A DNA stretch of 60,764 bases, counting the filler. It is 3 parts of 3 records of this genome, joined end to end, with 100 filler letters (N's around TTAATTAATTAA, not from the genome) between each part and the next. Parts side by side here need not be neighbours in the genome. Positions count along the whole stretch, not along the records: positions 28,248 to 50,019 come from SRR20825006_469; 2 more parts are not named here. One strand, written 5' to 3'. The notes beneath the pieces are model-generated. The model was not told the origin of the DNA, made no database searches, and saw only the letters and a list, made by a program, of their open reading frames with translations. Position numbers and translations under genes: made by a program. This document shows positions 28,148 to 47,907 of this stretch, one piece after another (position 1 is the stretch's first letter; every line of letters begins with the position of its first letter).

Positions 28148-28247
28148 NNNNNNNNNNNNNNNNNNNNNNNNNNNNNNNNNNNNNNNNNNNNTTAATTAAT
28201 TAANNNNNNNNNNNNNNNNNNNNNNNNNNNNNNNNNNNNNNNNNNNN
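28148..28247. other. Artificial contig spacer
   Basis: 44 N + TTAATTAATTAA (stops in all frames) + 44 N; genes are truncated on both sides. Confidence 0.98.
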
Positions 28248-28755: not shown

Positions 28756-28836
28756 ATCCGGCCTTCCCCCTATTGATTGGCATGGAACGATCGCGGCTCT
28801 TACGTCTTTGATAAGAGAGACAAAGGAGTTACCCCC

Positions 28837-29301
28837 ATGCCTGTAGATATCGGTTTGAACGACGAAGCCCGTAATACGTCCGCTGACGCCCTGCGCGTTT
28901 TGCTGGCGGAGACTTATGCACTCTATTCCAAGACCCACGGATATCACTGGAATGTCACCGGTCCGCGCTTCAACAGCCTGCACACCATGTTCGAGACACA
29001 GTATAACGAACTCTGGATGGCGCTGGATGAGATTGCCGAACGCATCCGCGCGCTGGGCCATTTCGCCCCGACATCACCCGCAGAAATGGTAGAGCCAGCC
29101 ACGATCAAGCCCGACAATGGCATTCCGGACGCCGACACGATGGTCGAGAATCTGGTCAAAGGGCATGAAGCCGTCAGCCGCGCTGGCAAGGCAGGCCTGA
29201 AAATTGCCGAAGACAATGGCGACGCGGTGACCGCAGACCTGATGACACAGCGCGCGGCGATCGCAGAAAAAACAGCCTGGATGCTGCGCGCGAACCTCTG
29301 A
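28837..29301 (+). CDS. dps: Dps family ferritin-like protein
   Basis: KTHGYHWNVTGPRF..LH..FE, DEIAERIRALG, EKTAWML; AAGGAG RBS. Confidence 0.95.
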   Translation: MPVDIGLNDEARNTSADALRVLLAETYALYSKTHGYHWNVTGPRFNSLHTMFETQYNELWMALDEIAERIRALGHFAPTSPAEMVEPATIKPDNGIPDADTMVENLVKGHEAVSRAGKAGLKIAEDNGDAVTADLMTQRAAIAEKTAWMLRANL

Positions 29302-29353
29302 TCCGCCCGCCAATACTGGATTGGCGCATCCTGCATATTGCACTGCACAACAC

Positions 29354-29397
29354 TTGCCGTGCCTCATGGGCTTGACCGCGCCCATGAGGCGCGGCAA
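29354..29397. repeat. GC-rich 18-bp stem-loop without U-tract
   Basis: TTGCCGTGCCTCATGGGC / GCCCATGAGGCGCGGCAA, one wobble pair, 8-nt loop. Confidence 0.7.
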
Positions 29398-29448
29398 TCT
29401 TGCATTCAGTTAATGAAAAAGCGGCCGTTAGAGCCCTGAATTCAAAGC

Positions 29449-29483
29449 AAAAAAAGGCCCGGCAGCGAATGAACGCGCCGGGC
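29449..29483 (-). terminator. Intrinsic terminator
   Basis: GCCCGGC...GCCGGGC stem followed by a 7-U run on the minus strand. Confidence 0.85.
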
Positions 29484-29562
29484 TGTAAGTATCGGGCCCC
29501 GTAGGGGGGAGGAAACGCCCAATCGGAGGAATGATTGGGTTAATGCCCGAGGCCCTTGGCAT
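29449..29562 (-). ncRNA. Candidate AbcR-like trans-acting sRNA
   Basis: CCCAAUC-AUUCCUCC-GAUUGGG hairpin, GUUUCCUCCCCCC, GC terminator plus U7; upstream promoter; lies downstream of an lsrB/vtlR-like gene. Confidence 0.7.
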
Positions 29563-29568
29563 GCGTGG

Positions 29569-29633
29569 TAGATAACCTCTCCCCCGATGATTACAACCAA
29601 CATGACAGCAAAGCTTTCATGCACTTATGCATG
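29569..29633 (-). promoter_or_regulatory. Putative sRNA promoter with upstream regulator palindrome
   Basis: Minus strand TTGTAA (29596-29591), TATCTA (29574-29569) and CATGCA-TAAG-TGCATG (29633-29618). Confidence 0.55.
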
Positions 29634-29649
29634 GATGTCGCATTTCTGA

Positions 29650-30558
29650 CTAATTCTGACGCATAGCCGGACGGCGCAGGATTTCGGTCTCTGCGGTGAT
29701 GAAGTCCCGGAAGGCCGACACGCGCTTCGAGCGGCGCAGGTCGCTCGGATAGATAAAGTAGAGATCGAAGATCGGGCCGACCGTCTCCGGCAACACTTTC
29801 ACAAGCCGCGGCATGGTCCCGGCCATATAGTCCGGCACGTCGGCAATCCCCAGCCCGGCATCCACGGCCCGCAACATGGCGAACACATTGTTCACCTTCA
29901 GTGCGGCCTGGCGCGGCGGGCTGTCATCCCGGCCCACACGGCAGGCAAAGCTCATCACATCCAGCATCGAGCTTTCATCGCCATAGGCAATGATCCGGTG
30001 ATTATCGAGGTCCTGCGGCGTGCGTGGCATGCCATAGGCTTTGAGATATTCCGGCGAGGCATAGAGATTGGTCGCCACCGTGCCCAGCTTGCGCTGGATC
30101 AGGTCCGCCTTGTCCGCCGCCCACAGGCGGATGGCGCATTCCGCCTCCAGCTTCAGCAGGTCATATTCGCGGCTGTCATCAAGGCGCAGGTCGAGATTCA
30201 TGTCCGGATGCTTGCGGGCAAATCCGCCAAGGCGCGGCACCAGCCAGGTCGAGCCGAACGCCACTGGCGCAGCGACGATCAATTCGCCCTGAGGGGTTTC
30301 CTGCTGGTCCTTCAGCAAGGCATTGGCCGACTGCGCCGCCGTCGCCATTTCCATGGTCGAGCGGAACAGCGTGTGGCCGCTATCGGTCAGCACCAGGCCG
30401 CGCGCATGCCGCTGGAACAGGGAGACGCCCAGCGCCTCTTCCAGCGCCGCAATCTGGCGCGAGACCGCCGACTGCGAAATGCCAAGCCGCTCGCCGGCAG
30501 ACGTCAGGCTGCCCGCTTCGGCCGCCGCGTGAAATGATTTCAGCTTACCCCAATCCAT
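29650..30558 (-). CDS. lsrB: LysR family regulator, LsrB/VtlR-like
   Basis: MDWGKLKSFHAAAEAGSLT...SQSAVSRQI.ALE...LFQRHARGLVLT and C-terminal YP..LR.SKRV.AFRDF. Confidence 0.78.
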   Translation of the reverse strand: MDWGKLKSFHAAAEAGSLTSAGERLGISQSAVSRQIAALEEALGVSLFQRHARGLVLTDSGHTLFRSTMEMATAAQSANALLKDQQETPQGELIVAAPVAFGSTWLVPRLGGFARKHPDMNLDLRLDDSREYDLLKLEAECAIRLWAADKADLIQRKLGTVATNLYASPEYLKAYGMPRTPQDLDNHRIIAYGDESSMLDVMSFACRVGRDDSPPRQAALKVNNVFAMLRAVDAGLGIADVPDYMAGTMPRLVKVLPETVGPIFDLYFIYPSDLRRSKRVSAFRDFITAETEILRRPAMRQN

Positions 30559-30669
30559 GGGGAGCGTTTGTGACGCCTAAATGACCCCACGGCAAGCAGA
30601 GAATGCGGGCGGCGCCTGAGGATAGATAACAAGAAAAATGCCATTTTTGAGAGACATAATAGGCGACCA

Positions 30670-31668
30670 CTATTCTCCGGAACTGGCTCCTCTAATCATT
30701 TCGACGATTTTAAGCCCGTCTTGGCCACTTGGTTCTCCTTGGTTTCCCAGATACCCAGATGAGGTGATGGCAAATATTGATCTTGTCGTTTCCATCAGAA
30801 CAGCGTCGCGCGTACCATCATCTGCTGCTGCTTTCACAAATGCTTGGAATGTTTTTAATGAGTTTGCTCTATGCCGATTAACAGAGATTTGATGTCGAAG
30901 GGCACGAAACTGACGCCCGCTCCAGTAGGTTGTACTCAGCAACAGTCCTAACACTACGATCTTTGAGGTGGTCAACTGAACGATCTGCGCCGCAGTTGCA
31001 TCCGCTGCAATTGGAAGAAAGTAGGACGCTACAGCTGCAACAATCGACGCCGTTCCAAGCGCCGCGGCGGCACCCAACCAAAGCTTTGCCTCTTTATCTT
31101 GTTCGTTCGCAGTCTCTTCAAAATCGCTAGAAAATGCCCCCACTCCAGCGGCTCCAGCAGCTTCCCTGGCGCTAATCAAGATCGAACCAATTTCTTCCTT
31201 TGACTTCGACAGATTGAGCTTGAACTCCTCAACTTCATCTGAAGTTCTTGTACGGAGCTCTTCTAAGCTTTGGATAGTTCTGTCCATGTCGCCAGCATAC
31301 AACGCCAAATATGCCGCATGAGGGGCAAGTACACTATATATCTGCTCTACTTGGCCTTTGAGTTGAGCTGCCAGTGATTCACGATTGGATGACGCATTAT
31401 CGGCTAGTGTGAACGCCTCAATTTGCTTAACAATACCCGTAAAACTTTTCAGTTTGCCAATGATCTCCCCAATATGTCGGTTCGGAAGTAATCGCACTGG
31501 AAGACTTCCAAGAGGCTTCACCATACTAATGATTGTTCTCAAATCGTCGGCACAATCATTGAAGTTCATGGAGTCCCAGTCGGCCTTAGCAAGAGTACCT
31601 GCAACATCTATTTTCGAAATTTCTGCCACGTATTCTTGAAGTTCAGTAACTTGCGCTTCGTTAGCCAT
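30670..31668 (-). CDS. Hypothetical coiled-coil protein with two TM helices, low-GC insert
   Basis: Long ORF with visibly AT-richer codon usage than the flanks; start at 31668 (alternative 31701). Confidence 0.75.
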   Translation of the reverse strand: MANEAQVTELQEYVAEISKIDVAGTLAKADWDSMNFNDCADDLRTIISMVKPLGSLPVRLLPNRHIGEIIGKLKSFTGIVKQIEAFTLADNASSNRESLAAQLKGQVEQIYSVLAPHAAYLALYAGDMDRTIQSLEELRTRTSDEVEEFKLNLSKSKEEIGSILISAREAAGAAGVGAFSSDFEETANEQDKEAKLWLGAAAALGTASIVAAVASYFLPIAADATAAQIVQLTTSKIVVLGLLLSTTYWSGRQFRALRHQISVNRHRANSLKTFQAFVKAAADDGTRDAVLMETTRSIFAITSSGYLGNQGEPSGQDGLKIVEMIRGASSGE

Positions 31669-31785
31669 TTTTTTATTCCCCCAACCATTTTGCGCGTTCA
31701 ATTTTTAGTTGCCCGCACTTTTAAGTAAAGTCGAATCTTTTAATGGCCAGTCCGTCTGATAGCCCACGGTCCCATACTTCTCCGC

Positions 31786-32406
31786 ATGAATGCGCAGACC
31801 GATATTCTCAAACGCGGGTTGGAGCATGCCGCCCTGGCCGTGATGGATGCGTCGGCGCTGGCGAACCTGCATCTGGGGCCGAAGCGGATCGGGCGCGGCC
31901 TGGCGCAGCGCGTCTCCGGCCGGCTCCGCATTCTTGAGACAATCGTCCGTCGGCTGATCCTCCTGATGGCGCTCGGCCTGCAGCTGGCCCCGACGCCGCC
32001 GCGCCCGGCTCCCGCCAATCCCGCGCCAGAGCCCGACCTGCCCGAAGGCGTCGAACTGGCCATCTTCCCGCGCCTCTCCCCCAGACGGCTGAAACTGCTG
32101 CCCGCGCGCCAGGCCTTTGAAGGCCCCGGCGGCTTTCCGGACATTTCCGGTACCAGTTATGGACCCGTTTCCCCCCACAAGCTGATGGCCCGCATCGCTG
32201 CGCTCCGGCGCGTGATTGCCGCGCCCGAAGCCCACGCGACCCGCCTCGCCCGCACCCTCAACCGCCTGCAGAAAAACGGCGAGCCCAAGCCAATGGTCGG
32301 CGCAGCAACGCCTGCCTATCGCCTCTCACCAGAGCTTGGCGCCCTGGCCGCCATGTTGCCCGCGCAGATCAGCGCCGGGCTGGAAACATGGGAAAGCTCT
32401 GGCTGA
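31786..32406 (+). CDS. Hypothetical protein, Pro/Arg-rich
   Basis: 206-aa ORF with host-like GC-rich third positions. Confidence 0.6.
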   Translation: MNAQTDILKRGLEHAALAVMDASALANLHLGPKRIGRGLAQRVSGRLRILETIVRRLILLMALGLQLAPTPPRPAPANPAPEPDLPEGVELAIFPRLSPRRLKLLPARQAFEGPGGFPDISGTSYGPVSPHKLMARIAALRRVIAAPEAHATRLARTLNRLQKNGEPKPMVGAATPAYRLSPELGALAAMLPAQISAGLETWESSG

Positions 32407-32516
32407 CTCCCCCGAGAAACCATTCCTTTCCGCCCGTTTCCCTCGCGTGACGGCCCCTTGTCATGCCTGTCATTCTTTCCGCGTGGTGGTACACTCCCGA
32501 CCGGGAGGATACGCGT

Positions 32517-33158
32517 ATGCCACGACTGAAACAGGCGGGCCGCGAAGCCGGAAATCCGTTCGCGAACCAGATTTTCGATTTGCTGTTTGAAGACCGGGAC
32601 CCGATTGCCGAACCCGGCACCGCAACCGGAACGCCCGGAAACTGGTGGACGGTTTTCAACATCGTGCCGGATGCCTTCAAGCACACGACCGAAGGCTTCC
32701 AGTTCTACCGCTCAAAGAACCGCAAGCTCGACCCGAAACTGCGCGAGCTTGGCCAGATCCGCGCCGGCTTTGCCGTCGGCTCACAATTTGTCTTCTCTCA
32801 GCATTGCAAGGCCAGCCGCGATGTCGGCCTGACCGAAGATCAGATCGCCGCCATTCCCCACTGGCAGGTCGCAGACTGTTTCAGCCCGCTGGAACGCGCC
32901 GTGCTCGCCTATACGGACGGCCTGGTCCTGCAACGCGGCCGCGTGCCCGATGGTGTGTTCGAGGCCCTGAAAGCGGAATTGTCGGACGAGGAAATCCTAG
33001 AATTCACCTACATCACCTGCACCTATATGATGCACGCCATCATGAGCCGTGCACTGAAACTGGAATATGATGATGTGGATGAACGCGTCGTCGAAATCGC
33101 CGCGCCGGATGGATCGGATACAGACGTCATGTCGATGGTCGACAAGGGAGGAAACTGA
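32517..33158 (+). CDS. Carboxymuconolactone decarboxylase/AhpD-like protein
   Basis: LDPKLRELGQIR, FSPLERAVLAYTD, LSDEEILE; GGAGG RBS. Confidence 0.8.
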   Translation: MPRLKQAGREAGNPFANQIFDLLFEDRDPIAEPGTATGTPGNWWTVFNIVPDAFKHTTEGFQFYRSKNRKLDPKLRELGQIRAGFAVGSQFVFSQHCKASRDVGLTEDQIAAIPHWQVADCFSPLERAVLAYTDGLVLQRGRVPDGVFEALKAELSDEEILEFTYITCTYMMHAIMSRALKLEYDDVDERVVEIAAPDGSDTDVMSMVDKGGN

Positions 33159-33160
33159 AC

Positions 33161-33697
33161 ATGGCCTATCGTCATCTCGCGCTCGCCGCGAAAGACATGA
33201 AAGCCACGCATGCATTCTATGAAGGCATCATGGGCTTTGAACTGGTCAAGGTCGAAGTCGCCCCAATCATGGGCGGCGGCTGGGGCAAGCATTTCTTCTA
33301 TCGCATGGATGGCGATGACAGCCGCTTCATCGCCTTCTGGGAATTGCACGAGACCGATGGTAGCGACGATTATGTCTACGACATCAACGCCGCCGCCAAA
33401 CTCCCGCCGGGTACAAATCATTATTCTTTTTCGGTGGATACGAAGGAAGAACTGGAAAGCTGGAAACAGAAATGGCTCGCCGCCGGGCTCGACGTGTTCG
33501 AGATCGACCATAATTGGTGTCACTCGATCTATACGAAGGACCCGAACGACAATGCAGTGGAATTCTGCCTGACCTCCGGCACCTTCACCGAGGCCGACCG
33601 CCAACGCGCGCTGGACGCCTTGTCGGAAACCGAGTTCAAGCCCTCTCCGCCGCCGGCCTTCATGCAAATGTGGAATGCCGAGAAAGCCGTCAGCTAA
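33161..33697 (+). CDS. VOC family protein
   Basis: HLALAAKDM..T..FY, NHYSF, SIYTKDPN.N.VE. Confidence 0.85.
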   Translation: MAYRHLALAAKDMKATHAFYEGIMGFELVKVEVAPIMGGGWGKHFFYRMDGDDSRFIAFWELHETDGSDDYVYDINAAAKLPPGTNHYSFSVDTKEELESWKQKWLAAGLDVFEIDHNWCHSIYTKDPNDNAVEFCLTSGTFTEADRQRALDALSETEFKPSPPPAFMQMWNAEKAVS

Positions 33698-34627
33698 CTA
33701 CCAGCGCGCCGAATAGCCTCTCGTATCGACATGCACGAACGGCCCATGCGCCGCATTCGATCCATAGGCCGATGCGCCGCCCACGACCCAACCTTCGGGC
33801 TGCTCGGCGGCAAGTTCGTCAATCAGCTTGACCAGCGCGCGGGCATCTTCCTTGTCGATCCGGCCATTGCCGTCGAGATCATCCATCTGCCCGTCCCGGT
33901 CCTGATCAATATAGATATCGGCGGCATCACCATACAAATGGCGCGATGAAGTCGTCGTATTGCCAATGGCCGCATTATAGAATGGCGTACGATAGCCGCT
34001 CATCACGAAGAAAGTATCCGCTTCCCAGCCCTTCTCATTGGCAGCGGCAAGAAGGGTTTCGAGCTTGACCAGCATGTCCGGCTGCATCAGCAGATAGGTC
34101 GGCTCATGTCCCGGCTGCTGCTTGCAGCGGAACTGGCCGAGCTGGAAATTGGGCGAAACGCGCAGATCCTCCGACATCGCCGTCAGGTCGATAAACCCCT
34201 TGGGCACGGCATAGGAAGGAAGGTCCCGCAACGGTCGGGCATACATTCCAATCCGATAGCCATTCAAGCTGTCATCCACGCCATTCTCGAACGGCGTCAG
34301 CACCAGCAGGTTCAGGCGGGTTTCGGCGCCGCGATGGGAGATCTTCATGTCGGCCAGCCCCGGCGCCTCCGGAGCGGTCCAGGCAATCTCCGCCGCGTCA
34401 CGGCTCAATTTTCCATCAGAAATCTCAATACGGGCATCTTCGGGAATGGCCAGCCTGATCTCCTCCCCCGGCATGGCGGAAACAGAGATCAGCGGCAGCG
34501 CAGAGCGTGTTCCGTTTACGGTAATCTCGACGCCAGCACCTGTCTTGACGGTCTCGGTCTTGTCGACCGGCTGGACCGGGTTCAGCTCCGCCGATGCGAT
34601 GATCCAGGGCAGGAAGATGAATTTCAT
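33698..34627 (-). CDS. Peptidase M15 (YcbK/MepK-like) with N-terminal extension
   Basis: SGYRTP.YN, SRHLYGDAADI, FVHVDTRG zinc-site motifs. Confidence 0.85.
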   Translation of the reverse strand: MKFIFLPWIIASAELNPVQPVDKTETVKTGAGVEITVNGTRSALPLISVSAMPGEEIRLAIPEDARIEISDGKLSRDAAEIAWTAPEAPGLADMKISHRGAETRLNLLVLTPFENGVDDSLNGYRIGMYARPLRDLPSYAVPKGFIDLTAMSEDLRVSPNFQLGQFRCKQQPGHEPTYLLMQPDMLVKLETLLAAANEKGWEADTFFVMSGYRTPFYNAAIGNTTTSSRHLYGDAADIYIDQDRDGQMDDLDGNGRIDKEDARALVKLIDELAAEQPEGWVVGGASAYGSNAAHGPFVHVDTRGYSARW

Positions 34628-34897
34628 GAACGCGGAAAATATGGGTCTGGTCCTCTTGTCTGGTCTGAGCAGGCACGCATCACTTTAACTATTACGCATG
34701 CCCCCTCAAACGCATCAGAGCGCAAATAGTGCCATACTTTTTCTGATGTTTTTCAGAGCCGTAATTCGGAACCGGAACGGGCGCGATCGGTTTATCCAGC
34801 AACACCGCGAAGAGTTCCGCCAGTCTTCCCGACCGGCCAGGCCAGCCTGCTGCGGCGGCCGCGCTCTTCTCTAACAAGAGTATTTTGGAGATTATTT

Positions 34898-36697
34898 ATG
34901 CGTACGCATCGCCGACTTCTTGTATCAACCCTCCTCGCGACCGCTGGCCTGCTGACCGCCATTCCCGCCAGCGCCCAGCATGCCGCGCCCGCCGATACTG
35001 TGCAGCTGGCCGATCTGAGCGAGAAAGAGGCCATGGGCGGCGAACTTGAAGCGGAAAAAGCCTCTGCCATCCAGACCCTGATCCTGAATGACTGGCTGGA
35101 GCGCGAACTGGGCAGTGAAACCGAAGCCGGTGTCCTGACCACAGTGCGCGCCGCCTATGCTCAGAATGTCTTCAAGCCGATCTGGACCGAGAAAGGGATC
35201 CGCTCGCTGAAGCGCGCGCGCAGTGATCTCTTCTCATACGGCCTCGTCCCATCCGACGTGTCGAAAGCCAACCTCAACAAGATCGCAGCCAAGCGCCTGA
35301 AAGGCGACAGCGACGAGATTCGCGCCACAGCCGATCTGCAACTGACCGCAGCCTGGATCCGCATGGCCTCTGCCGTAAGCGGAGGATTGTCCGATAATGG
35401 CGAAGCGGCAAAATCGAAGACCGATACGCCCTCCAAATCCACTGTGCAGAAAAGCCTGATCAAGGCGGCGCGGGGTGATGCCGACGACATCCTTTCCGAG
35501 CTCGAACCTGTGCACCCCCAATATAATCGTCTCAAGAAACAGCTGAAACAGTATCGCGAAATCCGGTCGGAGGGCGGCTGGCTCGCCATCCCGGATGGGG
35601 AAGCGATTGAACTGGACGACGAAGACCCACGTATTCCGGCCCTGCGCGACCGCCTGGAAGCGGAAGGCTATTACACGCCCGAGACATGGGCAGGCGATTT
35701 GCTGTCCGCCATCAGCATGGCTTCGAAAAATGATGACGGCACATCCGCTACGGAGATCGTGTTTGATGCGCGTCTTCAGAGCGCCCTGAAGGACTTCCAG
35801 CGCCATCACGGCCTTGAGGATGACGGTGTTGTGGGCCGGAACACGCTTGCGGCGCTGAATGAGAGTGTCGACTCCAAAATCGACCGGATCGCCGACACGA
35901 TGAATCGCTGGCGTCATTATGATGATCTGGGTGACCAGTATATCTGGGCCAATATTCCATCCTTCACCGCCGAAGGTTGGCGTCACAACCGTCGCGAAAT
36001 CGCGATGAAGACCATTGTTGGCATGCCCAGCCGTGAAACCCCGGTTTTCTCCGACCAGGTGGAATACGCAGTCGCAAATCCGCGCTGGTATGCCCCGGTC
36101 AGCATCGTGCGCCGCGACAAGCTGCCAAAGCTGGCCAAGGACCCGTCCTATGCGGCCCGCAAGAATTTCAGGGTGATTGACCGAGCCACCGGCCAGTCCG
36201 TCTCCGCCGCCTCGGTAGACTGGACCGATCCAGTCGCCGCCGACAACTACCAACTGGTCCAAGGCCCCGGCGCGAACAATGCGTTGGGCGATCTGAAGAT
36301 CATCTTTCCCAATCAGTATTCTGTCTATCTTCATGGCACGCCCGGCGTGAGCCTGTTTGACAGGGCCCAGCGCACGTTCAGCTCAGGCTGCGTCCGTCTG
36401 GAAAGGCCTGAAGACATGGCGAAATGGATTGCGGCGCATGACCCGGAAATCACATCCAGGGATGTATCGGAGGCGCTCGAAGGGTCAAATCCGGAACGAA
36501 TCGAGTTCAAGTCCGAAACCCAGATTCACATCACCTACATGACCGTCACAGTGGACGAAGACGGGGAGCCGAATTTTTGGCGTGACGTCTATCACGAAGA
36601 AGACGGCATCGAGATGGTCGACAAATATGCCCCACTCTACCAGCCCGCCCAGGATGAGGAACTGGCTCAAGCGACATCCGACCAACGCAAGGGATAA
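34898..36697 (+). CDS. L,D-transpeptidase, YcbB/LdtD family
   Basis: Signal peptide, PG-binding FQRHHGLEDDGVVG, YLHGTP...SSGCVRL. Confidence 0.92.
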   Translation: MRTHRRLLVSTLLATAGLLTAIPASAQHAAPADTVQLADLSEKEAMGGELEAEKASAIQTLILNDWLERELGSETEAGVLTTVRAAYAQNVFKPIWTEKGIRSLKRARSDLFSYGLVPSDVSKANLNKIAAKRLKGDSDEIRATADLQLTAAWIRMASAVSGGLSDNGEAAKSKTDTPSKSTVQKSLIKAARGDADDILSELEPVHPQYNRLKKQLKQYREIRSEGGWLAIPDGEAIELDDEDPRIPALRDRLEAEGYYTPETWAGDLLSAISMASKNDDGTSATEIVFDARLQSALKDFQRHHGLEDDGVVGRNTLAALNESVDSKIDRIADTMNRWRHYDDLGDQYIWANIPSFTAEGWRHNRREIAMKTIVGMPSRETPVFSDQVEYAVANPRWYAPVSIVRRDKLPKLAKDPSYAARKNFRVIDRATGQSVSAASVDWTDPVAADNYQLVQGPGANNALGDLKIIFPNQYSVYLHGTPGVSLFDRAQRTFSSGCVRLERPEDMAKWIAAHDPEITSRDVSEALEGSNPERIEFKSETQIHITYMTVTVDEDGEPNFWRDVYHEEDGIEMVDKYAPLYQPAQDEELAQATSDQRKG

Positions 36698-36700
36698 GGC

Positions 36701-37318
36701 TTACTGGCTCGCCCAGAGAATACGGGCGAGCCAGGCAATCTCTGACGGTTTGAAACTGCGTACGGGATAGGCCGGGTTCAACGAGGCCAGTTCAACTATG
36801 CGCGTATTCTTGCGCGCCAGGACCTTGGCCATCACTTCGCCACCAACAGTTTTTGCCACCACCCGATCGCCCGGTTTCACCTCGGAACCCGGCGACACGA
36901 TAATCCGGTCCCCGGCCCGATAGGCCGGCTCCATGGAATCTCCGCTGATCTCCAATGCGTAAACCGACTCCGTTTCCAGCCCCGGAAACCGAACCTCCTC
37001 CCAGCCGCCGCCGACAGGAAAACCGGCATCATCGAAGAAGCCGTCCTGCCCAGCCTGCGCAAAGCCTATCAGGGGGGCAATCGCTCCGCGCCGACCATCG
37101 ACCAAGGCGGCAAAATCCTCAAACCGACTGCCAACAGATTCCAGGACGCGCGCAAGGCTTTCCGTGGACGGCCAGCGCGGACGTCCATCAGCCCCTTCCC
37201 GCTTGGAAGGATTGAAGGCCGTCGGATCCAGCCCGGCCCGGCGTGCCAGTCCAGACGGCGTCAGCCCATGATGCGCAGCAAGGGCATCAAGCCCCCGCCA
37301 GATATCTCGATGTTTCAT
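36701..37318 (-). CDS. HTH-S24 (LexA/CI-like) repressor, possibly RogA-like
   Basis: SGLARRAGLDPTAFN, WPSTES, AQAG cleavage site, GDSMEP serine, MAK lysine. Confidence 0.85.
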   Translation of the reverse strand: MKHRDIWRGLDALAAHHGLTPSGLARRAGLDPTAFNPSKREGADGRPRWPSTESLARVLESVGSRFEDFAALVDGRRGAIAPLIGFAQAGQDGFFDDAGFPVGGGWEEVRFPGLETESVYALEISGDSMEPAYRAGDRIIVSPGSEVKPGDRVVAKTVGGEVMAKVLARKNTRIVELASLNPAYPVRSFKPSEIAWLARILWASQ

Positions 37319-37319
37319 G

Positions 37320-37377
37320 GGATAATTTTCCCAAAGGTTGCACTCGCCGCTAAATAGGAATATTCACCTATTGTCAA
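37320..37377 (-). promoter_or_regulatory. Promoter with two GGAA-N4-TTCC-like operators
   Basis: Minus-strand TTGACA at 37377-37372; GGAT-AATT-TTCC (37320-37331) and GGAA-TATT-CACC (37357-37368). Confidence 0.55.
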
Positions 37378-37397
37378 GTGAGGGTGGGAAAACTGCA

Positions 37398-38126
37398 ATG
37401 AAACTGTTCATACATGGCGTTCCGGATACGCCGCATCTGTGGGAGCCACTGATTGCGGCGCTCGGTCTCGGCGCCGATGACTATCGCGCCCCCGCCCTAC
37501 CCGGCTTTGGCTGCCCGCGTCCGGACGGGTTCAGCGCAACCAAGGACGCCTACGCGAACTGGCTGGTCGAGCAGATGGAAGCGGCCGGTGGCAATGTCGA
37601 TATTGTCGGCCATGACTGGGGCGCACTGCTGACCCTGCGCGCCGTGTCCCTCAGGCCGGATCTTGTAAGCAGTTGGTGTGTCACCAATGCGGTGATCGAC
37701 CCCGACTATCGCGGCCACTCGCTGGCGAGGCGCTGGGCAACGCCTGTGCTGGGTGAGCTTGTCATGCTGGGCATGCGCAACAAGAAACGGCTCCTTCCTG
37801 CACTGGTTTCCGGCGGCATGCCGCGCAGCCTGGCCGAGCAGGAAGTTCCGCTCATCGACAAGACGATGCGGCAGAGCATTCTTCGCCTCTACCGGTCAGC
37901 GGCCGGCCTGCGCTTCTCGGATGAATGGGTGAAGGGTCTCGAAAATCTGCCGGAGCGCGGCCAGTTATTCTGGGGCGAGACGGACCCTTATGTCGACCTC
38001 TCTGTGGGCGAACGATTTTCCAAACGCTGGAACGTTCCGCTGCATGTCGAGCGCGGCGCCGGACATTGGGCCTGTGCGGAGCGGGCAACCGAGTTCGCTG
38101 CCCTGCTCCAATCACACTGGGCCTGA
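37398..38126 (+). CDS. Alpha/beta hydrolase (epoxide hydrolase-like)
   Basis: FIHGVP, PGFG, VGHDWG nucleophile elbow, AGHW. Confidence 0.88.
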   Translation: MKLFIHGVPDTPHLWEPLIAALGLGADDYRAPALPGFGCPRPDGFSATKDAYANWLVEQMEAAGGNVDIVGHDWGALLTLRAVSLRPDLVSSWCVTNAVIDPDYRGHSLARRWATPVLGELVMLGMRNKKRLLPALVSGGMPRSLAEQEVPLIDKTMRQSILRLYRSAAGLRFSDEWVKGLENLPERGQLFWGETDPYVDLSVGERFSKRWNVPLHVERGAGHWACAERATEFAALLQSHWA

Positions 38127-38129
38127 GTT

Positions 38130-40718
38130 TCAGGCAGCTTCCTTCTTCGGGCTGCCCAGTTCCTGTTTCACGCGCTCGGCCAGCTGGCGGACGGTGAACG
38201 GCTTCGGCAGGAACGAGACCGCGCGGTCGTCGTCCAGCTGTTTGGCAATGTCGCGCTCGGCATAGCCGGAGATGAAGATCACGCGGGCATGACCCAGCAG
38301 ATCCTTGGCTTCGCGGATCAACGTCGGACCATCTTTGCCCGGCATCACCACATCGGAAATGACAAGATCAAAACTTTCCGGATTGTCCTCGAGAATTTCC
38401 ATCGCTTCTTCGCCATCGCAGGCCTCTTCGACTTCATAGCCGCTCGACCGTAGCAAGGAGGCGGCAATGCCGCGCACGCCATCTTCGTCCTCGATCAACA
38501 GGATGCGACCGCGACCGGAAATATCCACCGGCTGGCTGGCAATTTTCTCGGCCTGCGCCATGTCCACCGGCTCAGGTATTTCCTCTGCCTTGAGCGCGGG
38601 AAGATAAATGTGGAACGTTGTGCCCTTGCCTACGCTGGAAGTGGTGCAGATATAGCCGCCCGACTGCTTGATGATGCCGTAGACCGTCGCAAGCCCGAGA
38701 CCTGTACCGACGCCAGCTTCCTTCGTCGTGAAGAAGGGCTGGAAGATCTTGTCCATGACGTCTTTCGGCATGCCGTGACCGCTATCTTCCACTTCGATCA
38801 GCATATAGTCGCCATCGCTCACAAAGGCGAAGCCCTTGTCCTGGGCTTCCTTGCCGGTGGCGCGCGCCGTGCGGATTGTCAGCTTGCCACCATTCTTGTG
38901 GCTGAGCATCGCGTCGCGCGCATTGGTGGCAAGGTTGAACAGTGCGTTCTCAAGCTGGTTTTTGTCGGCCTTGATGTAAGGCACATCGCGGCCATGCTTG
39001 ACGTCCAGCTCGATCCGCTCATCCAGCAACTGGCGCAGGAGGATCGAGAATTCAGACATGAAGTCCGTCACCGCAAACACTTCGCGCTTGAAGGTCTGCT
39101 GGCGCGCATAGGCGAGCAGCATCTTCACAAGGTCTTTCGCACGGATCGAGAATTCGTGGATCGATTTCAGATTGGAATAGGATGGATCTCCCAGAGGGTG
39201 GTGAACCATCAGCTGTTCATTGTTCAGGATGATGCCTTGCAGCACGTTGTTGAAATCATGCGCGACGCCGCCGGCCAGTTGTCCGATGGCCTGCATCTTC
39301 TCACCGTGCGCCAGACGCATTTCCAGCTGGCGCTGTTCGGTGATGTCCATGACATAGGCCACCGAGGGACGGCCTGCGCCGTCAAGCGCCACGAAGACGT
39401 TTACGTGCTTGGGCTCTTCTCCAACCAGTTTCAGGTTCACTGGCTTGTCGATGGCATCAATGAGCAGGCTCTTGAGTGCATCTTCGCCTTCTTCCGGGGC
39501 AAACAATTCAGAGAACTTGCCGCCCGGCGCGGCTTTGCCCTCGGTCAGGTCCATCAGCGAACGGTTGGCATCCATGATGATTGCGCTGTCTACGCTGCCG
39601 CCCTCGAGGCGCACCGCTCCAAAGGGCGCATCATCAAACATCGGATCACCATCCGGACGCGGTGGGCGTGACGCGGTCGAAATGCGGAAGCCTTCCTCGC
39701 CGGTGTTCATGACTTGCTGGCTAGCCAGAATGATCGTGCGTCCTGTCGCGTCCGCGCCCTTGCCCGACCAGGTCGTAATCGCCTGAACCGGGCGCTCAAC
39801 ACCGTCACGACCGCGCAGCTGGATGTCGACCCGGCCCGGCACGCCGGATTTGCGGTCGCGCGAGAGCATCTTCACGAACTCAGGGCGCATGATGTCGTCG
39901 ATACGAATATTCTTGGCCGTTTCCGGCAGACCCAGCATATCGCGCAGCCAGCCATTGGCATAAGTGATCGTGCCATCCGGGCGCGCAGCGAAGAAGCCCA
40001 TCGGCGCGTCTTCGACATAAAGCGATTTCAAGTCGGCCGCGCCGGTCGCTTCGCGCTCGCCGGCGATCGGACGAATACGCCAGAGCACTTTGTCACGCGG
40101 TAGCGGCGAAACAGTGATTTCGAACTGGGCGGGCACACGCTCCGGGCCGATCGTGATCGGCGGCAGGATTTCGCGGCGCGCATGACCGGCCTTCGCCCCC
40201 TTGGACAGGCGGTAAACCGGTGCGGCCAGACCTGGATTGGCACCGAACAGGCGATCCACGGTCACCGGAGCGCCTTCGGCTTGGGAGCCGATCAGCGCAA
40301 GGCTTGTCAGCTCGCGATAAGATGTATTGGCCGCAACAGGCGCCCCCCCCTGATCGGCAATCAGGACCGATTCATCCAGCGCCTCGATCCAGCCAAAGCG
40401 CGGCGTCGCCGCTTGAGCGGCGCGCGCAATCGAGCCGCGCTCCGGGAACAAGCCCAGCATCCGGCCAGCGCCGCGTACGCTCCACAGCAAGAATACCAGT
40501 CCACCAGAGGCCATCGCAATCAGCAGGATCGGGCCAGGCGCGCCCGAAGCATTTGGCCAGGCAAGCGCAACACTGGCCGCAGCAATCGAAACGAGCAGGC
40601 AGACCCAGAACGAAAGCTGCATGAAATCCACGCGTCCGCGCTCAGTCACTTCGCTTGTTTCAGCGGTGGTATCCTGATCGTCAGCGGGAGCGGCCTTCGC
40701 CTGCATTTGAAAATCCAT
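38130..40718 (-). CDS. cckA: Cell-cycle hybrid histidine kinase CckA
   Basis: Two TMs, PAS regions, KMQAIGQLAGGVAHDFNN, NARDAM, GTGLGLATVYGI, C-terminal receiver; start uncertain. Confidence 0.85.
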   Translation of the reverse strand: MDFQMQAKAAPADDQDTTAETSEVTERGRVDFMQLSFWVCLLVSIAAASVALAWPNASGAPGPILLIAMASGGLVFLLWSVRGAGRMLGLFPERGSIARAAQAATPRFGWIEALDESVLIADQGGAPVAANTSYRELTSLALIGSQAEGAPVTVDRLFGANPGLAAPVYRLSKGAKAGHARREILPPITIGPERVPAQFEITVSPLPRDKVLWRIRPIAGEREATGAADLKSLYVEDAPMGFFAARPDGTITYANGWLRDMLGLPETAKNIRIDDIMRPEFVKMLSRDRKSGVPGRVDIQLRGRDGVERPVQAITTWSGKGADATGRTIILASQQVMNTGEEGFRISTASRPPRPDGDPMFDDAPFGAVRLEGGSVDSAIIMDANRSLMDLTEGKAAPGGKFSELFAPEEGEDALKSLLIDAIDKPVNLKLVGEEPKHVNVFVALDGAGRPSVAYVMDITEQRQLEMRLAHGEKMQAIGQLAGGVAHDFNNVLQGIILNNEQLMVHHPLGDPSYSNLKSIHEFSIRAKDLVKMLLAYARQQTFKREVFAVTDFMSEFSILLRQLLDERIELDVKHGRDVPYIKADKNQLENALFNLATNARDAMLSHKNGGKLTIRTARATGKEAQDKGFAFVSDGDYMLIEVEDSGHGMPKDVMDKIFQPFFTTKEAGVGTGLGLATVYGIIKQSGGYICTTSSVGKGTTFHIYLPALKAEEIPEPVDMAQAEKIASQPVDISGRGRILLIEDEDGVRGIAASLLRSSGYEVEEACDGEEAMEILEDNPESFDLVISDVVMPGKDGPTLIREAKDLLGHARVIFISGYAERDIAKQLDDDRAVSFLPKPFTVRQLAERVKQELGSPKKEAA

Positions 40719-40915
40719 TGGTCGCTTTACACTCCTGTTGCCAGCCGCCAAGGTCAGGCCAGCACTCTACGCCTTTTCCGTTCGGCATCACTGCCGACTC
40801 AGTCATACGGAATCCTAGTGTACCAAATGTGGCACGACAAAGGTTAATGAAAGCGAAAAAGGCGTTAAGACAAACGTTGAAAATTACAGAAATCACAGTG
40901 GAATCGGAGCTTTTC

Positions 40916-42805
40916 ATGAGACGAACTTCAACAGCAATCGCAGCGCTCCTGCTGCTCGGCGCCTGCCAAAGCGCGGATGACACAACGCTGCCGCCTCCTG
41001 TCGCTGAAATGCCGCCTGCGCCAACCCAAGCCGACCGGAGCGAACTGGTCGCGGCCGAAAGCGCCCGGCTGAATGAATGGTTCGAGGACAAGTTCCAGGA
41101 AACTCTGGACCGCAACCCGATGTACCAGACCTATCTCGGCGTGAAGACCGACTACGACAAATGGAATGACGTTTCCGACGCCAAGGCTATCGAAGATATG
41201 GAAATCCAGCGCGCCAATATCGCTGAGATGAAAACACTCTTTGATTTTGACCTACTGAATGATCAGGCCAAACTGTCCTGGCGGCTCGCCGAATATGAGC
41301 TGGCCGAAGCAGAAGCCGGATTTCCGTATCGCCACTATGATTATGTTTTCGACCAGATGCGCGGCGTCCAGTCCGGCATTCCGGCCTTCTTAGTCAACCA
41401 GCATGGCGTGACCAGCCTGTCCGATGCGGAGGCCTATGTGGCCCGCCTCGAAGGCGTGGAAACTTACCTGGCGCAAAACATTGAAAATGCGGAATATTCC
41501 GCCAGCCTCGGTATCATGCCACCCGCCTTCGCTTACCCCTACGTACTGAACGATTCCAAGGGCGTAATCACCGGCTATCCCTTCACGACCGATGTGAGTG
41601 ATGGCAGCGAAGACAGCCCACTGATGAAGGATTTCCGCAGCAAGGTCTCCGGACTTGTTGAGGCCGGAACGATTGACGATGTTCAGGCGGCTGAGCTGCT
41701 CGCTGATGCCACCACCGCCCTCACATCAGCGGTCGGCCCGGCCTATGAAAACCTCATCGCGGCCATGACCGAGCAGGCCAAAAGCGCGACCACAGAGGAT
41801 GGCGCATGGAAGCTGCCCGAGGGCGACGCCTATTATGCGATGCGTCTGAAGCGGATGACGACGACCGACAAGAGCGCGGCAGAAGTCCACCAGCTCGGCC
41901 TCGACGAGGTGGCTCGCATCCATGAGGAAATGCGCGGGATCATGGCGAAGGTCGGATTCGAGGGCACGCTGAAGGAATTCTTCGAGTTCATGCGAACAGA
42001 TGAGCAATTCTATCTTCCCAACACTGAAGAAGGCCGCGAGGCCTATCTGGCCGAAGCTCGCGCCCAAATCGAGCTTATGAAGGTCGACCTGCCCAGCGTA
42101 TTCAACACATTCCCCAAGGCTGACATGATCGTCAAAGCGGTCGAACCATTCCGCGAGAAATCCGCCGGCAAGGCCTTCTATTCCCGCCCTGCCCCGGATG
42201 GCAGCCGGCCCGGCACTTACTATGCCAACCTCTATCGCATGCAGGATATGCCGACCTACCAGTTGCAGGCCCTCGCCTTCCATGAAGGCATTCCAGGCCA
42301 CCACATGCAGATCGCCATTGCGCAGGAGCTGGAAGGCATTCCGAGCTTCCGCAAGTATGGCGGCTATACTGCCTTCTCCGAAGGTTGGGGCCTCTATTCG
42401 GAATTCCTGCCAAAAGAGATGGGCTACTATTCCGACCCGTATGACGATTTCGGACGACTTGCGATGGAGATCTGGCGCGCAGCACGCCTGGTCGTCGATA
42501 CAGGCATCCATGACAAACAATGGACCCGCGAAGAGGCGATCCAGTATTTGCTTGACAATACGCCCAACCCGGAAGGTGACGCGAAGAAGGCCATTGAGCG
42601 CTACATCGTGATGCCGGGACAGGCAACGGCCTACAAAATCGGTATGCTCAAAATTCTCGAGTTGCGCGAACAAGCCAAGGGGGAACTTGGTGAGTCATTC
42701 GACATCGCCGAATTCCACGATGTTGTCCTGAAGGATGGCCCCGTGCCCCTGAGCATTCTGGAAGAGAATGTCATGGCTTGGGTCGCCGAGAAAAAGGAAG
42801 ACTGA
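40916..42805 (+). CDS. DUF885 family lipoprotein
   Basis: Lipobox LGAC, HEGIPGHH, EGWGLYSE, PGQATAYKIG. Confidence 0.9.
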   Translation: MRRTSTAIAALLLLGACQSADDTTLPPPVAEMPPAPTQADRSELVAAESARLNEWFEDKFQETLDRNPMYQTYLGVKTDYDKWNDVSDAKAIEDMEIQRANIAEMKTLFDFDLLNDQAKLSWRLAEYELAEAEAGFPYRHYDYVFDQMRGVQSGIPAFLVNQHGVTSLSDAEAYVARLEGVETYLAQNIENAEYSASLGIMPPAFAYPYVLNDSKGVITGYPFTTDVSDGSEDSPLMKDFRSKVSGLVEAGTIDDVQAAELLADATTALTSAVGPAYENLIAAMTEQAKSATTEDGAWKLPEGDAYYAMRLKRMTTTDKSAAEVHQLGLDEVARIHEEMRGIMAKVGFEGTLKEFFEFMRTDEQFYLPNTEEGREAYLAEARAQIELMKVDLPSVFNTFPKADMIVKAVEPFREKSAGKAFYSRPAPDGSRPGTYYANLYRMQDMPTYQLQALAFHEGIPGHHMQIAIAQELEGIPSFRKYGGYTAFSEGWGLYSEFLPKEMGYYSDPYDDFGRLAMEIWRAARLVVDTGIHDKQWTREEAIQYLLDNTPNPEGDAKKAIERYIVMPGQATAYKIGMLKILELREQAKGELGESFDIAEFHDVVLKDGPVPLSILEENVMAWVAEKKED

Positions 42806-42807
42806 TC

Positions 42808-43455
42808 ATGACTTCACGCAGCTTCGGTCCCGCCTGTTTCGCTTCTGTCGCACTGGCGGGGCTGGCTGCGTGTACATCTGTGCTGGCGCCGGTGCTCAAA
42901 CCGAACGTCACCACGGACGTCGTGAAATTGGAGGGCGGCAACTGGCAGCTGGATCCGGCTCACGCCGCCCTCACCTTCAAGATCGATCATCTGGGCTACT
43001 CGACTTATATTGGTCGGTTCGAACGATTTGATGTTCAGCTGAGCGGCGCCGCTGACAATCCAGCCGATGCGAAGGTCGAAGGCAGGGTGGACATGAGTTC
43101 GCTCGACATCGCAAATGACGAGTTTGCCGAAACGCTTATGGGAGCAGACTGGTTCAACGCCGCCAACTTCCCCGAAGCCCGGTTCCAATCGACTCGCATC
43201 GTGATGACCAGCGAAACCACAGCGGACGTCGAAGGCATCCTGACCCTGCATGGAAAGAATGCCCCGGTCACTCTGGCCGTGACCTTCAATGGCGCGGGCT
43301 TCGACCGGCTACGCAACGCGCAAGTGGCCGGATTCTCGGCTACAACGGAGATCGACCGGACCGTTTTCGGCATCAGCCGGTTCAGCGGACTGATCACAGA
43401 TATGGTGCGCGTTGAAATCGAGGCGGAACTGTTAAAGACTCCCGGCGTAACTTGA
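42808..43455 (+). CDS. YceI family lipoprotein
   Basis: LAAC lipobox, LDPAH...F..DHLG, GRF, G.LTLHG. Confidence 0.88.
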   Translation: MTSRSFGPACFASVALAGLAACTSVLAPVLKPNVTTDVVKLEGGNWQLDPAHAALTFKIDHLGYSTYIGRFERFDVQLSGAADNPADAKVEGRVDMSSLDIANDEFAETLMGADWFNAANFPEARFQSTRIVMTSETTADVEGILTLHGKNAPVTLAVTFNGAGFDRLRNAQVAGFSATTEIDRTVFGISRFSGLITDMVRVEIEAELLKTPGVT

Positions 43456-43517
43456 TCTGACGGGTCTACCCTCCCTATCAGGGAACAGGATCAGAACTAA
43501 TATCAGGAGATTCGGGG

Positions 43518-44501
43518 ATGCTGGGTGAAATGTTGGCGGAGGTCTTCTCCGTATCGGGCCTGTTTACGTTATTCATGCTATTGTTGCTTCAGGCCGTGCT
43601 CGGCTTCGACAATTTGCTCTACATTTCCATCGAATCAAAACGGGTTGGCGAAGCAAAAGCGCCGATGGTGCGCCAATGGGGCATCGGCCTCGCAGTGCTG
43701 TTCCGGATCGTCCTGCTCTTCGTCATCGTCGCGCTGTTCGATGCTCTGGCCGAGCCTTTGTTCGGCTTCCATCTATCAGGAATAATCGAGGGAGAGTTCA
43801 CCTTCCAGAGCATGATCACCTTCGTCGGTGGGGCCTTCATCATCTACACGGCGATCAAGGAAATCTCCCACATGTTGACGGTGGAGCACATCGAACACAG
43901 CGAGGGCGGCAAGTCGAAATCTGTGTTGCAGGCAATTGGCCTTATCGTGGCAATGAACCTCGTCTTCTCGTTCGACTCCATCCTGTCGGCCATGGCCATC
44001 GCGAATGAGGAAATCGCGCGCATCGTGAATTCCGCTGGTGAAACGATTGGCACGTTCAAGGGCACGGTAACCGATTGTAAGGAAGCCCTGATCGCTCAGC
44101 CAATAGCAGATGCGGTCGCATGCCGGCCGGGCAAGGACTACCAGGTCTGGTTGATGGCAATTGCGATCATCACGTCAGGCATCGTCATGGCGTTGATGGC
44201 AAACGCGGTGGCGGACTTCCTGAAGAAAAACCGGATGTATGAGGTCATGGGCCTGTTCATCCTGTTTCTCGTCGGCGTTCTTCTGGTCACCGAGGGCGCA
44301 CATCTCGCCCACTTGAAACTGTTCGACTACACGATCGAAGCCATGTCGAAGTCTTCCTTCTACCTCGTCATCTTCGTACTGGTGGTCACTGACATCATCT
44401 CAGTACGCTACCAGCGCCGCCTCTGGGCGCAGCGCGAGGCTGAAATTCTGGGTGGAGGCACAGAAGAAGCGTCGAAAGCGGGCGCTGAAGCCAATATGTA
44501 G
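43518..44501 (+). CDS. TerC family membrane protein
   Basis: VLGFDNLLYI, NLVFSFDSILSA. Confidence 0.85.
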   Translation: MLGEMLAEVFSVSGLFTLFMLLLLQAVLGFDNLLYISIESKRVGEAKAPMVRQWGIGLAVLFRIVLLFVIVALFDALAEPLFGFHLSGIIEGEFTFQSMITFVGGAFIIYTAIKEISHMLTVEHIEHSEGGKSKSVLQAIGLIVAMNLVFSFDSILSAMAIANEEIARIVNSAGETIGTFKGTVTDCKEALIAQPIADAVACRPGKDYQVWLMAIAIITSGIVMALMANAVADFLKKNRMYEVMGLFILFLVGVLLVTEGAHLAHLKLFDYTIEAMSKSSFYLVIFVLVVTDIISVRYQRRLWAQREAEILGGGTEEASKAGAEANM

Positions 44502-44522
44502 GAATTTTCGGGCAGCCCCTGC

Positions 44523-45865: not shown

Positions 45866-45905
45866 AAAACGGCGGTGATCCGATCAGGATCACCGCCGCT
45901 TTTTT
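45866..45905. terminator. Bidirectional intrinsic terminator downstream of dksA
   Basis: CGGCGGTGATCC / GGATCACCGCCG stem flanked by AAAA and TTTTTT. Confidence 0.85.
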
Positions 45906-47904: not shown

Positions 47905-47907
47905 TCC

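Follow-up and report, generated by a model that had tools for sequence, protein, structure and literature searches.

What lies between the LysR-type regulator gene that ends at position 29650 and the convergent gene dps, in a 60,764-nucleotide (nt) stretch of Hyphomonas-like DNA (the window: three contigs joined end to end, filler included)? The ~200 bases there hold, on the minus strand, a complete small transcription unit, which an initial annotation made from the letters alone took for an AbcR-like small RNA (sRNA) with two anti-Shine-Dalgarno (anti-SD) motifs, next to an LsrB/VtlR regulator and outside the Rhizobiales. Judged by its conservation in relatives, not by a promoter scan, the predicted sRNA gene is real, conserved and more than the product of chance. 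We consider it probable that this is an independently transcribed, trans-acting sRNA gene of ~114 nt that makes up, with the lsrB orthologue upstream of it, a fixed module of two genes, is activated by LsrB and, probably with the help of Hfq, acts by anti-SD pairing. The elements listed initially (the palindrome, TTGTAA and TATCTA, a 7-bp hairpin, a second C-rich motif and a U7 terminator, ~114 nt in all) were each found in the sequence, and the unit and its regulator gene are laid out as follows, in positions of the window.

29632-29449, minus strand: transcription unit from palindrome to terminator, by sequence reading
29633-29618, minus strand: palindrome CATGCATAAGTGCATG, read from the sequence
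29632-29619, strand-neutral: 14-bp core ATGCA-N4-TGCAT of a LysR-type transcriptional regulator (LTTR) box, at about -70 to -57, including GCAT-N3-TG
29596-29591, minus strand: -35 element TTGTAA, its TTG column aligned and kept in 60 loci
29574-29569, minus strand: -10 element TATCTA, aligned as TAT(C/G/T)TA
29449-29562, minus strand: predicted sRNA, ~114 nt, its 5' end placed from the -10 element and its 3' end at the U-tract
29562-29558 with 29547-29543, minus strand: helix 1, 5' hairpin AUGCC/GGCAU, whose loop carries the 5' strand of helix 2
29554-29548 with 29501-29495, minus strand: helix 2, long-range, GGGCCUCG/CGGGGCC, from the RNAalifold consensus
29539-29533 with 29524-29518, minus strand: helix 3, 7 bp, CCCAAUC/GAUUGGG, with loop AUUCCUCC (29532-29525), the first anti-SD motif
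29517-29504, minus strand: seed CGUUUCCUCCCCCC, the second anti-SD motif, unpaired in the consensus structure
29483-29457 and 29455-29449, minus strand: intrinsic terminator, G+C-rich stem and U7, from fold and consensus
29650-30558, minus strand: lsrB/vtlR orthologue, LysR-type, 302 amino acids (aa), stop at 29650, Pfam HTH_1 and LysR_substrate

To define how far this unit is kept in relatives, we used a protein-anchored scan with one genome per species, which gave 64 loci, mostly from Hyphomonas and other Hyphomonadaceae with a LysR 70-99% identical to that of the window, and one from Telmatospirillum (51%). By blastn, the intergenic match in 60 of the 64 loci covers exactly the predicted transcript (29563-29449), starts abruptly at the predicted +1 (ATGCC), and is bounded by flanks that diverge on both sides. 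The conserved structure was read from two alignments. The first (A1) held 54 distinct copies; RNAalifold gave helices 2-4, the fourth being the terminator stem, and helix 1 was added by eye. In its four helices 99.1% of cells were paired, and two-sided changes were seen in 13 pairs, a number reached by none of 500 shuffles. The second (A2) held 95 matches in 82 distinct rows and was fitted to a model for helices 2-4, not for helix 1; pairing was 97.9%, with 22 of 30 pairs changed on both sides (0/500 shuffles as high), and fell to 30-48% when the partners were slid by 1-3 columns. The covariation that the initial annotation had proposed to look for in lsrB 3' intergenic regions is thus present. 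By helix, pairing in A2 was 98.9% for helix 2 (all 7 pairs changed on both sides), 99.6% for helix 3 and 99.2% for the terminator (6/11 pairs). Helix 1 was 97% paired in A1 (3/5 pairs changed on both sides) and 91.4% in A2 (4/5), though outside the model there. A duplex-energy test of the 5' region against the segment 3' of the seed was also tried and set aside; it returned a duplex in 76 of 76 sequences with a median z of only -1.87 against mononucleotide shuffles, and since G+C-rich shuffles also pair well, we rely on covariation, not on duplex energy.

Helices 1 and 2, which the initial annotation had missed, together make an H-type pseudoknot with a first loop of 3 nt, no second loop and a third loop of 44 nt that contains the helix 3 hairpin and the seed. 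The long-range helix 2 replaces the CCCC...GGGG pairing of the single-sequence fold. Distant members rewrite both pseudoknot helices and keep the arrangement: UGCAUGA/UCAUGCA goes with GUCUC/GAGAC, UCGCGC/GCGCGA and GUGCGC/GCGCAC each with GCCUC/GAGGC, and ACGCGC/GCGCGU with GACCCCG/CGGGGUC. The minimum free energy of 29449-29570 is -46.7 kcal/mol (z = -3.07), and one of 200 shuffles folded as well. A covariance model of the RNA, R1, scored 117.2 bits on 29449-29568. The unpaired stretch is the most constant part of the molecule, with GUUUCCUCC in 82/82 distinct sequences and GGCGUUUCCUCCC in 71/82.

With R1, the sRNA was found directly downstream of the lsrB orthologue in 62 of the 64 protein-found loci, including L075 and L078, which had been outside the training of the model; of the two exceptions, L079 has too little downstream DNA and L087 carries another RNA type. 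The module proposed for a lineage outside the Rhizobiales is therefore found there. Its named carriers include Hyphomonas sp. L-53-1-40, H. atlantica 22II1-22F38, H. jannaschiana VP2, H. polymorpha PS728 and H. johnsonii MHS-2. The reverse search, R1 over 151 genomes sampled from the order, gave 47 genomes with a match at E <= 0.001, 29 of them at 52 bits or more. Twenty weaker places (21 matches) and 11 further loci from the search made up 31 RNA-found loci, and each of the 31 has a LysR orthologue (59-99% identical) as the next gene upstream, in the same orientation. Linkage to lsrB accordingly holds for all 93 loci with the sRNA; the other flanking genes vary among loci, and the sRNA is the sole constant partner of lsrB. 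One locus (G217:C4, L200, LsrB 64% identical) has tandem copies of the sRNA at 1501-1617 and 1779-1895, each with its own box, which recalls abcR1/abcR2. A class-wide R1 search, again over 151 genomes, gave 8 weak matches of 24-28 bits; none is beside a LysR homologue, and we take them as noise or mmgR-like.

The same comparisons bear on whether the element is a gene at all. It might instead be a cis element of a neighbour (a leader, a riboswitch, an mRNA stabiliser or a bidirectional terminator) or a short coding gene. It is located between convergent genes, where terminators are expected, and a 60-aa open reading frame (ORF; 29442-29624, minus strand) overlaps it. The downstream genes, however, vary among loci and are often convergent like dps, and the sRNA ends in its own terminator and so leads nothing; four compensatory helices and an invariant unpaired CU-rich stretch exceed what a terminator would need. 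As to coding, we rejected the 60-aa ORF because it spans both promoter and terminator and is broken in relatives by indels of 1-2 nt. We regard this whole class of explanations as very improbable.

Next to be considered is the DNA upstream of the predicted start. The -35 and -10 elements are separated by 16 nt, and the predicted start, A29562, lies 7 nt past the -10. Among 88 distinct upstream sequences, the ATGCA-N4-TGCAT box was exact in 60 and had one mismatch in 24 (84/88 combined), and in 83 of the 88 its first base lies 63-66 nt ahead of the model start, which places it at about -70 relative to the predicted start. The -35 and -10 columns align across 60 loci and in a further alignment, while the spacers between elements vary. 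The exact palindrome is rare: five Hyphomonas genomes have 3-5 copies each, and the reversed control pattern is absent from them. In the available excerpts of two papers, a VtlR/LsrB box GCAT-N3-TG-N3-T is reported for Brucella abortus and Agrobacterium tumefaciens (PMC7486931), and the Sinorhizobium meliloti abcR1 promoter is described with a box at -61 to -49 whose removal, like the loss of LsrB, abolishes activity (PMC8844928). The box in the window sits ~7 nt further upstream than this S. meliloti site.

A second exact ATGCA-N4-TGCAT, with spacer AGAT, was seen at G042:C4:68366-68379 (L130, ~1501) and G043:C62:123602-123615, ~70 nt ahead of a gene that was judged lipoyl-synthase-like by eye because of its CxxxCxxC motifs. 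TTGATG follows it after 23 nt, the phasing found in the sRNA promoter, and the lipoyl-synthase-like gene is a possible second target of LsrB.

Among solved structures, the regulator's best relative was 9hh1_A, LsrB of A. tumefaciens (244 bits, E = 1.3e-71, residues 1-290; ~50% identity by eye over the 290 aligned residues), and the next chain reached only 96 bits; this cryo-EM structure is deposited as 9HH1 (PMC11975290, available excerpt). In Hyphomonas sp. L-53-1-40 (G042), whose LysR record is 100% identical to that of the window, the paralogues scored at most 104.5 bits to this LysR, and the two best gave 107 and 101 bits to 9HH1. With so strong a match for the one protein and such weak ones for its paralogues, the LysR comes out as the genome's LsrB by a proxy reciprocal test, as initially proposed. 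In 39 of 41 other genomes a search at E <= 1e-60 returned a single match; one further genome gave two matches and another gave none. Of the redox cysteine pair C144/C273, the C144 equivalent is conserved (EAECAIRL), and NCBIfam gave no equivalog for this protein. The trxB-lsrB pairing described for Rhizobiales (excerpts of PMC7486931 and PMC11975290) is absent at the window locus; a TrxB-like Pyr_redox_2 gene was seen only in L078, two genes upstream. By the comparisons with solved structures and paralogues we assign the LysR as the LsrB/VtlR orthologue. As far as the available parts of the two papers go, LsrB was stated in 2025 to be unique to Rhizobiales (PMC11975290), and the LsrB/VtlR protein was said to be present in many Alphaproteobacteria (PMC7486931).

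From these elements we propose the following mechanism. LsrB would bind the ATGCA-N4-TGCAT box, centred near -63, and activate a sigma-70-type promoter. The transcript would fold as the H-type pseudoknot, the 5' hairpin's loop pairing with the segment just 3' of the seed, so as to enclose the 7-bp hairpin and leave the invariant GUUUCCUCCCC unpaired and, in most Hyphomonas, a CCUCC loop as well. The A/U-rich linker and the U-tract terminator would serve as the Hfq-binding site; hfq is present in 3/3 genomes tested, and a linker, terminator and U-tract of this kind have the layout usual for Hfq binding. The CU-rich seed could then pair with the Shine-Dalgarno regions of target mRNAs, block ribosomes and promote decay, as rhizobial AbcR1/2 do, with uptake genes as likely targets. 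AbcR, for its part, represses the mRNAs of ABC transporters in an Hfq-dependent way. Perfect 10-nt complements of the seed (GGGAGGAAAC) are enriched: each genome has 13-15, and the reversed control gives 1-3. Some fall at ribosome-binding sites, namely those of a TonB-dependent receptor (two genomes), the small subunit of a DUF4212 symporter (two genomes), a DcaP-like porin and a PhaB-like reductase; we treat these candidate targets as leads only. A full-length duplex prediction against four candidate translation-initiation regions was discarded, since the duplexes were unrealistically long and intramolecular structure was ignored.

Does the RNA come from its own promoter, as we prefer, or mainly by processing of the lsrB 3' untranslated region (UTR), the palindrome then serving lsrB autoregulation or another factor? 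SorX of Rhodobacter sphaeroides, recorded as derived from the RSP_0847 3' UTR, is a precedent for the latter. In 4/4 RNA-library runs the unit is covered by assembled contigs, and in run X10 a 175-nt contig (29423-29596) covers just the unit, apart from the dps and lsrB contigs. Several observations weigh against an independent, LsrB-activated gene, and the first of them favour the 3'-UTR origin. In runs X1 (28846-30389) and X6 (29398-29992) a single contig runs from the sRNA into lsrB, and the stretch from the lsrB stop (29650) to the box (29632) has no terminator, which makes read-through or 3'-UTR processing possible. Contigs of this kind give no ends, strand or level and may reflect DNA carry-over, which makes them a weak hint; uncovered stretches, in turn, carry no weight. 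The generic sigma-70 scan did not list this promoter, its -10 included, nor did the terminator scan list this terminator; the promoter went unlisted because TATCTA agrees with TATAAT at only 3 of 6 positions, and its case therefore rests on the comparison with relatives. The box holds the GCAT-N3-TG core, but the final T of the 13-nt published box is G here, and it is a 14-bp palindrome of the form T-N10-A, not the classic T-N11-A. The C273 equivalent of the regulator is I; in A. tumefaciens loss of C273 sensitises the cells to H2O2 (PMC11975290, same excerpt), and the signal sensed may therefore differ. CCUCC stands in the helix 3 loop of 65 of the 82 distinct sequences and is lost or altered in 17: three Hyphomonas sequences have UUUAUUC there, and the most distant members a loop of unrelated sequence. 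Of the two anti-SD motifs proposed initially, then, the seed is kept throughout and the loop motif in part only, and since the one is universal and the other is not, the primary seed would be the single-stranded motif. Finally, the seed is common to the genome's own mmgR (see below), so that guesses based on it cannot separate the targets of the two RNAs.

What speaks for an own promoter is that box, -35 and -10 stay in fixed phase with the RNA start while the spacers vary freely, that conservation sets in sharply at the predicted +1, that in G217 a separate box and promoter, over 250 nt distant from the LysR gene, belong to the second copy, and that the X10 sRNA contig is separate from the lsrB contig. 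We hold a mainly 3'-UTR origin to be unlikely, and the two routes could coexist.

The remaining features of the window concern the surroundings of the sRNA gene, which lies in the middle contig.

28148-28247 and 50020-50119: window joins, N44-TTAATTAATTAA-N44 linkers between the three contigs
28777-29301, plus strand: dps, convergent with the lsrB/sRNA side

The complete identity of the LysR to the Hyphomonas sp. L-53-1-40 record, obtained in the protein-anchored scan, identifies the host as Hyphomonas, in agreement with the Hyphomonas-like genome assumed at the outset. Upstream of lsrB lies an ORF of 343 aa (30670-31701, minus strand) that neither Pfam nor NCBIfam matched; the lsrB contig of G042, a near-identical genome, stops inside this ORF (~window 31129), and a 97%-identical match resumes at 31751 on another contig. 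The first contig join is flanked by partial genes, a C-terminal UDP-glucose-dehydrogenase-like ORF (minus strand, by eye) and a C-terminal aminotransferase (plus strand). A DNA search of the intergenic region against 41 genomes gave 0 matches. The LysR of the nearest-listed genome, G001, is only 47% identical, so G001 is not kin and the empty search says nothing on conservation. Against window positions 30600-50599, G001 gave only short matches of 66-84% identity despite the 21% of shared 31-letter words stated for it; if real, these words must come from the window's first contig or its third.

Three further conserved elements were met in the Hyphomonas genomes. TGACACA...GCAAGTTTCTGGGAGGAAACGCTGCAAACGGTGGA, apparently non-coding, is kept in 5/5 genomes (L145, L136, L137, L154, ~1455-1540; L163, ~815-900), and its opposite strand has weak RF00519 matches in G042 and G043; a leader to which the seed could pair is one possible reading, a third RNA sharing that seed another. 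The promoter-like TTGACAG...GATTATTCC (L140-L143, ~1455-1550), followed by GTTGGAGGAAACGCACC, GTG and a 12-codon ORF, was found in 4 of the 5 genomes searched and may be a leader peptide or a small RNA. GGGAAGACGGCATGGGAGGAAACCTTCTTGCAGTTGCGG (L215, L202, L225, ~1480-1530) is conserved, with no ORF behind it in G042 and G043 and a diverged copy in G044; its opposite strand reads GUUUCCUCCCAUGCC and may be another anti-SD RNA.

To which known RNA does the element belong? No Rfam family reached its gathering score anywhere in the window, in agreement with the initial view that the RNA is unannotated. A permissive search of 401 bases (29300-29700, E <= 10) gave nine matches. AbcR/ar15 (RF02345, cut-off 40 bits) and SorX (RF02784, cut-off 46.6) were not among these, and ar14 scored 21.1 bits against a cut-off of 58.8. 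Searched alone on five Hyphomonas genomes, ar15 gave no match at E <= 10 at the lsrB locus (best elsewhere 17.9 bits), and across the class (151 genomes) none over the cut-off; the single sub-threshold match there, L120, is of mmgR type and not beside a LysR gene. The likeness to AbcR seen initially thus stands for gene position, box and the placement of the two CU-rich motifs; with no ar15 match, analogue or distant relative is the description that holds, rather than AbcR homologue.

The best Rfam match was RF00519 (suhB/MmgR), which scored 23.3 bits (E = 0.011; cut-off 41), with UGGGCGUUUCCUCCC, the ACUU linker and the terminator aligned. This raises a further explanation, that the sRNA is a diverged duplicate of MmgR (alpha-r8/suhB) which stands beside lsrB by chance and acts on the MmgR regulon, that is, on carbon storage. 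Like MmgR, the sRNA has (U)GGGCGUUUCCUCCC immediately behind a hairpin, and both continue with a linker (A/U-rich, ACUU) and end in a terminator. A conserved UUUCCUCCCU between the first hairpin and the terminator is the hallmark of the MmgR/RF00519 family, and the sRNA has it, with UGGGCGUUUCCUCCC aligned to the Rfam consensus and GUUUCCUCC in 82/82 sequences. R1 in return matches true Hyphomonas mmgR weakly, at 19.6-23.5 bits for 4 of 6 RF00519 loci and lower still at two more, and one of the 10-nt seed complements lies at the ribosome-binding site of the PhaB-like reductase. A review describes ar15 and MmgR as both partly homologous to SuhB/RF00519 (PMC7143759, available part), and the weak RF00519 match would suit a distant member of a broader SuhB-related group. 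The score, however, is far under the cut-off, and 5/5 Hyphomonas genomes have a true mmgR elsewhere, at 48.3-54.9 bits against 22.3-23.8 bits for the lsrB-linked sRNA. These true loci (L103-L108, for example G042:C19:68623-68695) carry the GGCGUUUCCUCCC seed, and G045 has a second copy at 42 bits. Unlike MmgR, the sRNA is linked to lsrB and the box, the linkage holding in all 93 loci, and no exact box occurs at the mmgR loci of the five genomes; S. meliloti mmgR is reportedly under the control of NtrC and AniA (same part of PMC7143759). The sRNA is also ~40 nt longer, and its pseudoknot domain has no counterpart in the 77-nt MmgR model. A chance-placed MmgR copy is accordingly an improbable account, and as it concerns ancestry and targets, it is compatible with control by LsrB.

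Other alphaproteobacteria have a different RNA behind LsrB. In a genus that is not kin to the host (L001-L030), the LsrB homologue is 47% identical, and sub-threshold SorX- or mmgR-like matches lie within 1.5 kb of it (12 matches in 11 of 18 scanned loci); those to SorX, of 28.5-35.4 bits, occur only beside the LsrB homologue of this genus. ATGCA-N5-TGCAT boxes were found downstream of the homologue in 17 of the 30 loci. L004 has two tandem units (~2790-2895 and 3017-3262), each with a hairpin ACGUCUCCCAGACGU and AAGCCUCCCUG followed by a terminator, with a box before the second only. The same CUCCCA-type RNA stands behind a 51%-identical LsrB homologue in Telmatospirillum sp. J64-1 (L087, 4925-5165). 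As true SorX comes from the RSP_0847 3' UTR, the similarity of these RNAs to SorX is likeness, not membership. Like the Hyphomonas module, they combine an LsrB homologue (47-51%), a palindromic box, and one or two anti-SD sRNAs with terminators. In contrast, they have the hairpin ACGUCUCCCAGACGU followed by GAAGCCUCCCUG and a box with N5, and the Hyphomonadaceae sRNA has neither that hairpin nor GAAGCCUCCCUG; by its sequence it is a second, distinct RNA type in the same lsrB cassette.

More tentatively, the cassette of lsrB, box and sRNA may be ancient in alphaproteobacteria, with regulator, operator and gene position unchanged over time and the RNA alone remodelled, in Hyphomonadaceae and neighbouring families of the order, to a pseudoknot that displays the MmgR GUUUCCUCCC seed inside its long loop. 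One seed would then have two inputs, LsrB and the mmgR promoter, converging on uptake and carbon-storage mRNAs, with TonB-dependent receptors, the DUF4212/solute-symporter pair and the PhaB-like reductase as candidates. The pseudoknot would serve seed display or resistance to RNases and be of a kind rare among trans-acting sRNAs. We offer this as a possibility that is rather doubtful as it stands.

We found no description of the sRNA in the literature on AbcR and on sRNAs that treats Hyphomonas or Caulobacterales, a survey that did not cover subscription journals and supplements, and we class it as a new RNA family within a known kind of regulator-sRNA module. LsrB/VtlR-AbcR is among the best-studied regulator-sRNA circuits of host-associated Rhizobiales. 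The counterpart in free-living marine Hyphomonadaceae is an LsrB orthologue that shares the operator core and is at the least a neighbour, if not the driver, of a different sRNA family. In more distant relatives, the RNA behind this regulator is of yet another type. This points to a general alphaproteobacterial circuit design and offers a natural series for sRNA replacement under persisting promoter logic. Given two-sided changes in 22 of 30 pairs and good support for the pseudoknot, the sRNA is fit for entry as an Rfam family and for probing of its structure, and it gives a first handle on post-transcriptional control in Hyphomonas.

In AbcR, motif M1 (CUCCCA) lies in the first hairpin loop and M2 (GUUCCC) behind the hairpin (PMC5461406); for S. 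meliloti the motifs are given as CUCCUCCC and UUCCCCUC (PMC8844928, available excerpt). The alpha-r15 family has been described as confined to Rhizobiaceae and Brucellaceae (PMC3712013). AbcR1 and AbcR2 of Sinorhizobium, Agrobacterium and Brucella resemble the Hyphomonas sRNA in standing directly downstream of lsrB/vtlR with GCAT-N3-TG upstream of the -35, in a length of ~115-120 nt, and in having a CU-rich loop motif, a single-strand motif GUU(U)CC... and a Rho-independent terminator. The tandem abcR1/abcR2 arrangement has its parallel in the tandem copies of the one relative, G217. The positions of the motifs correspond, whereas their words differ: CUCCCA/CUCCUCCC and GUUCCC/UUCCCCUC in AbcR, AUUCCUCC and GUUUCCUCCCC in the sRNA. 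The folds differ as well, AbcR being a simple three-hairpin RNA and the Hyphomonas sRNA, from another host order, having a 5' pseudoknot domain. A pseudoknot has a precedent in RydC of enterobacteria, a trans-acting, Hfq-dependent sRNA that folds in this way. RydC is unrelated to the Hyphomonas sRNA in sequence and host, and it carries its seed at the free 5' end, whereas the Hyphomonas sRNA has its predicted seed in the long loop of the pseudoknot.

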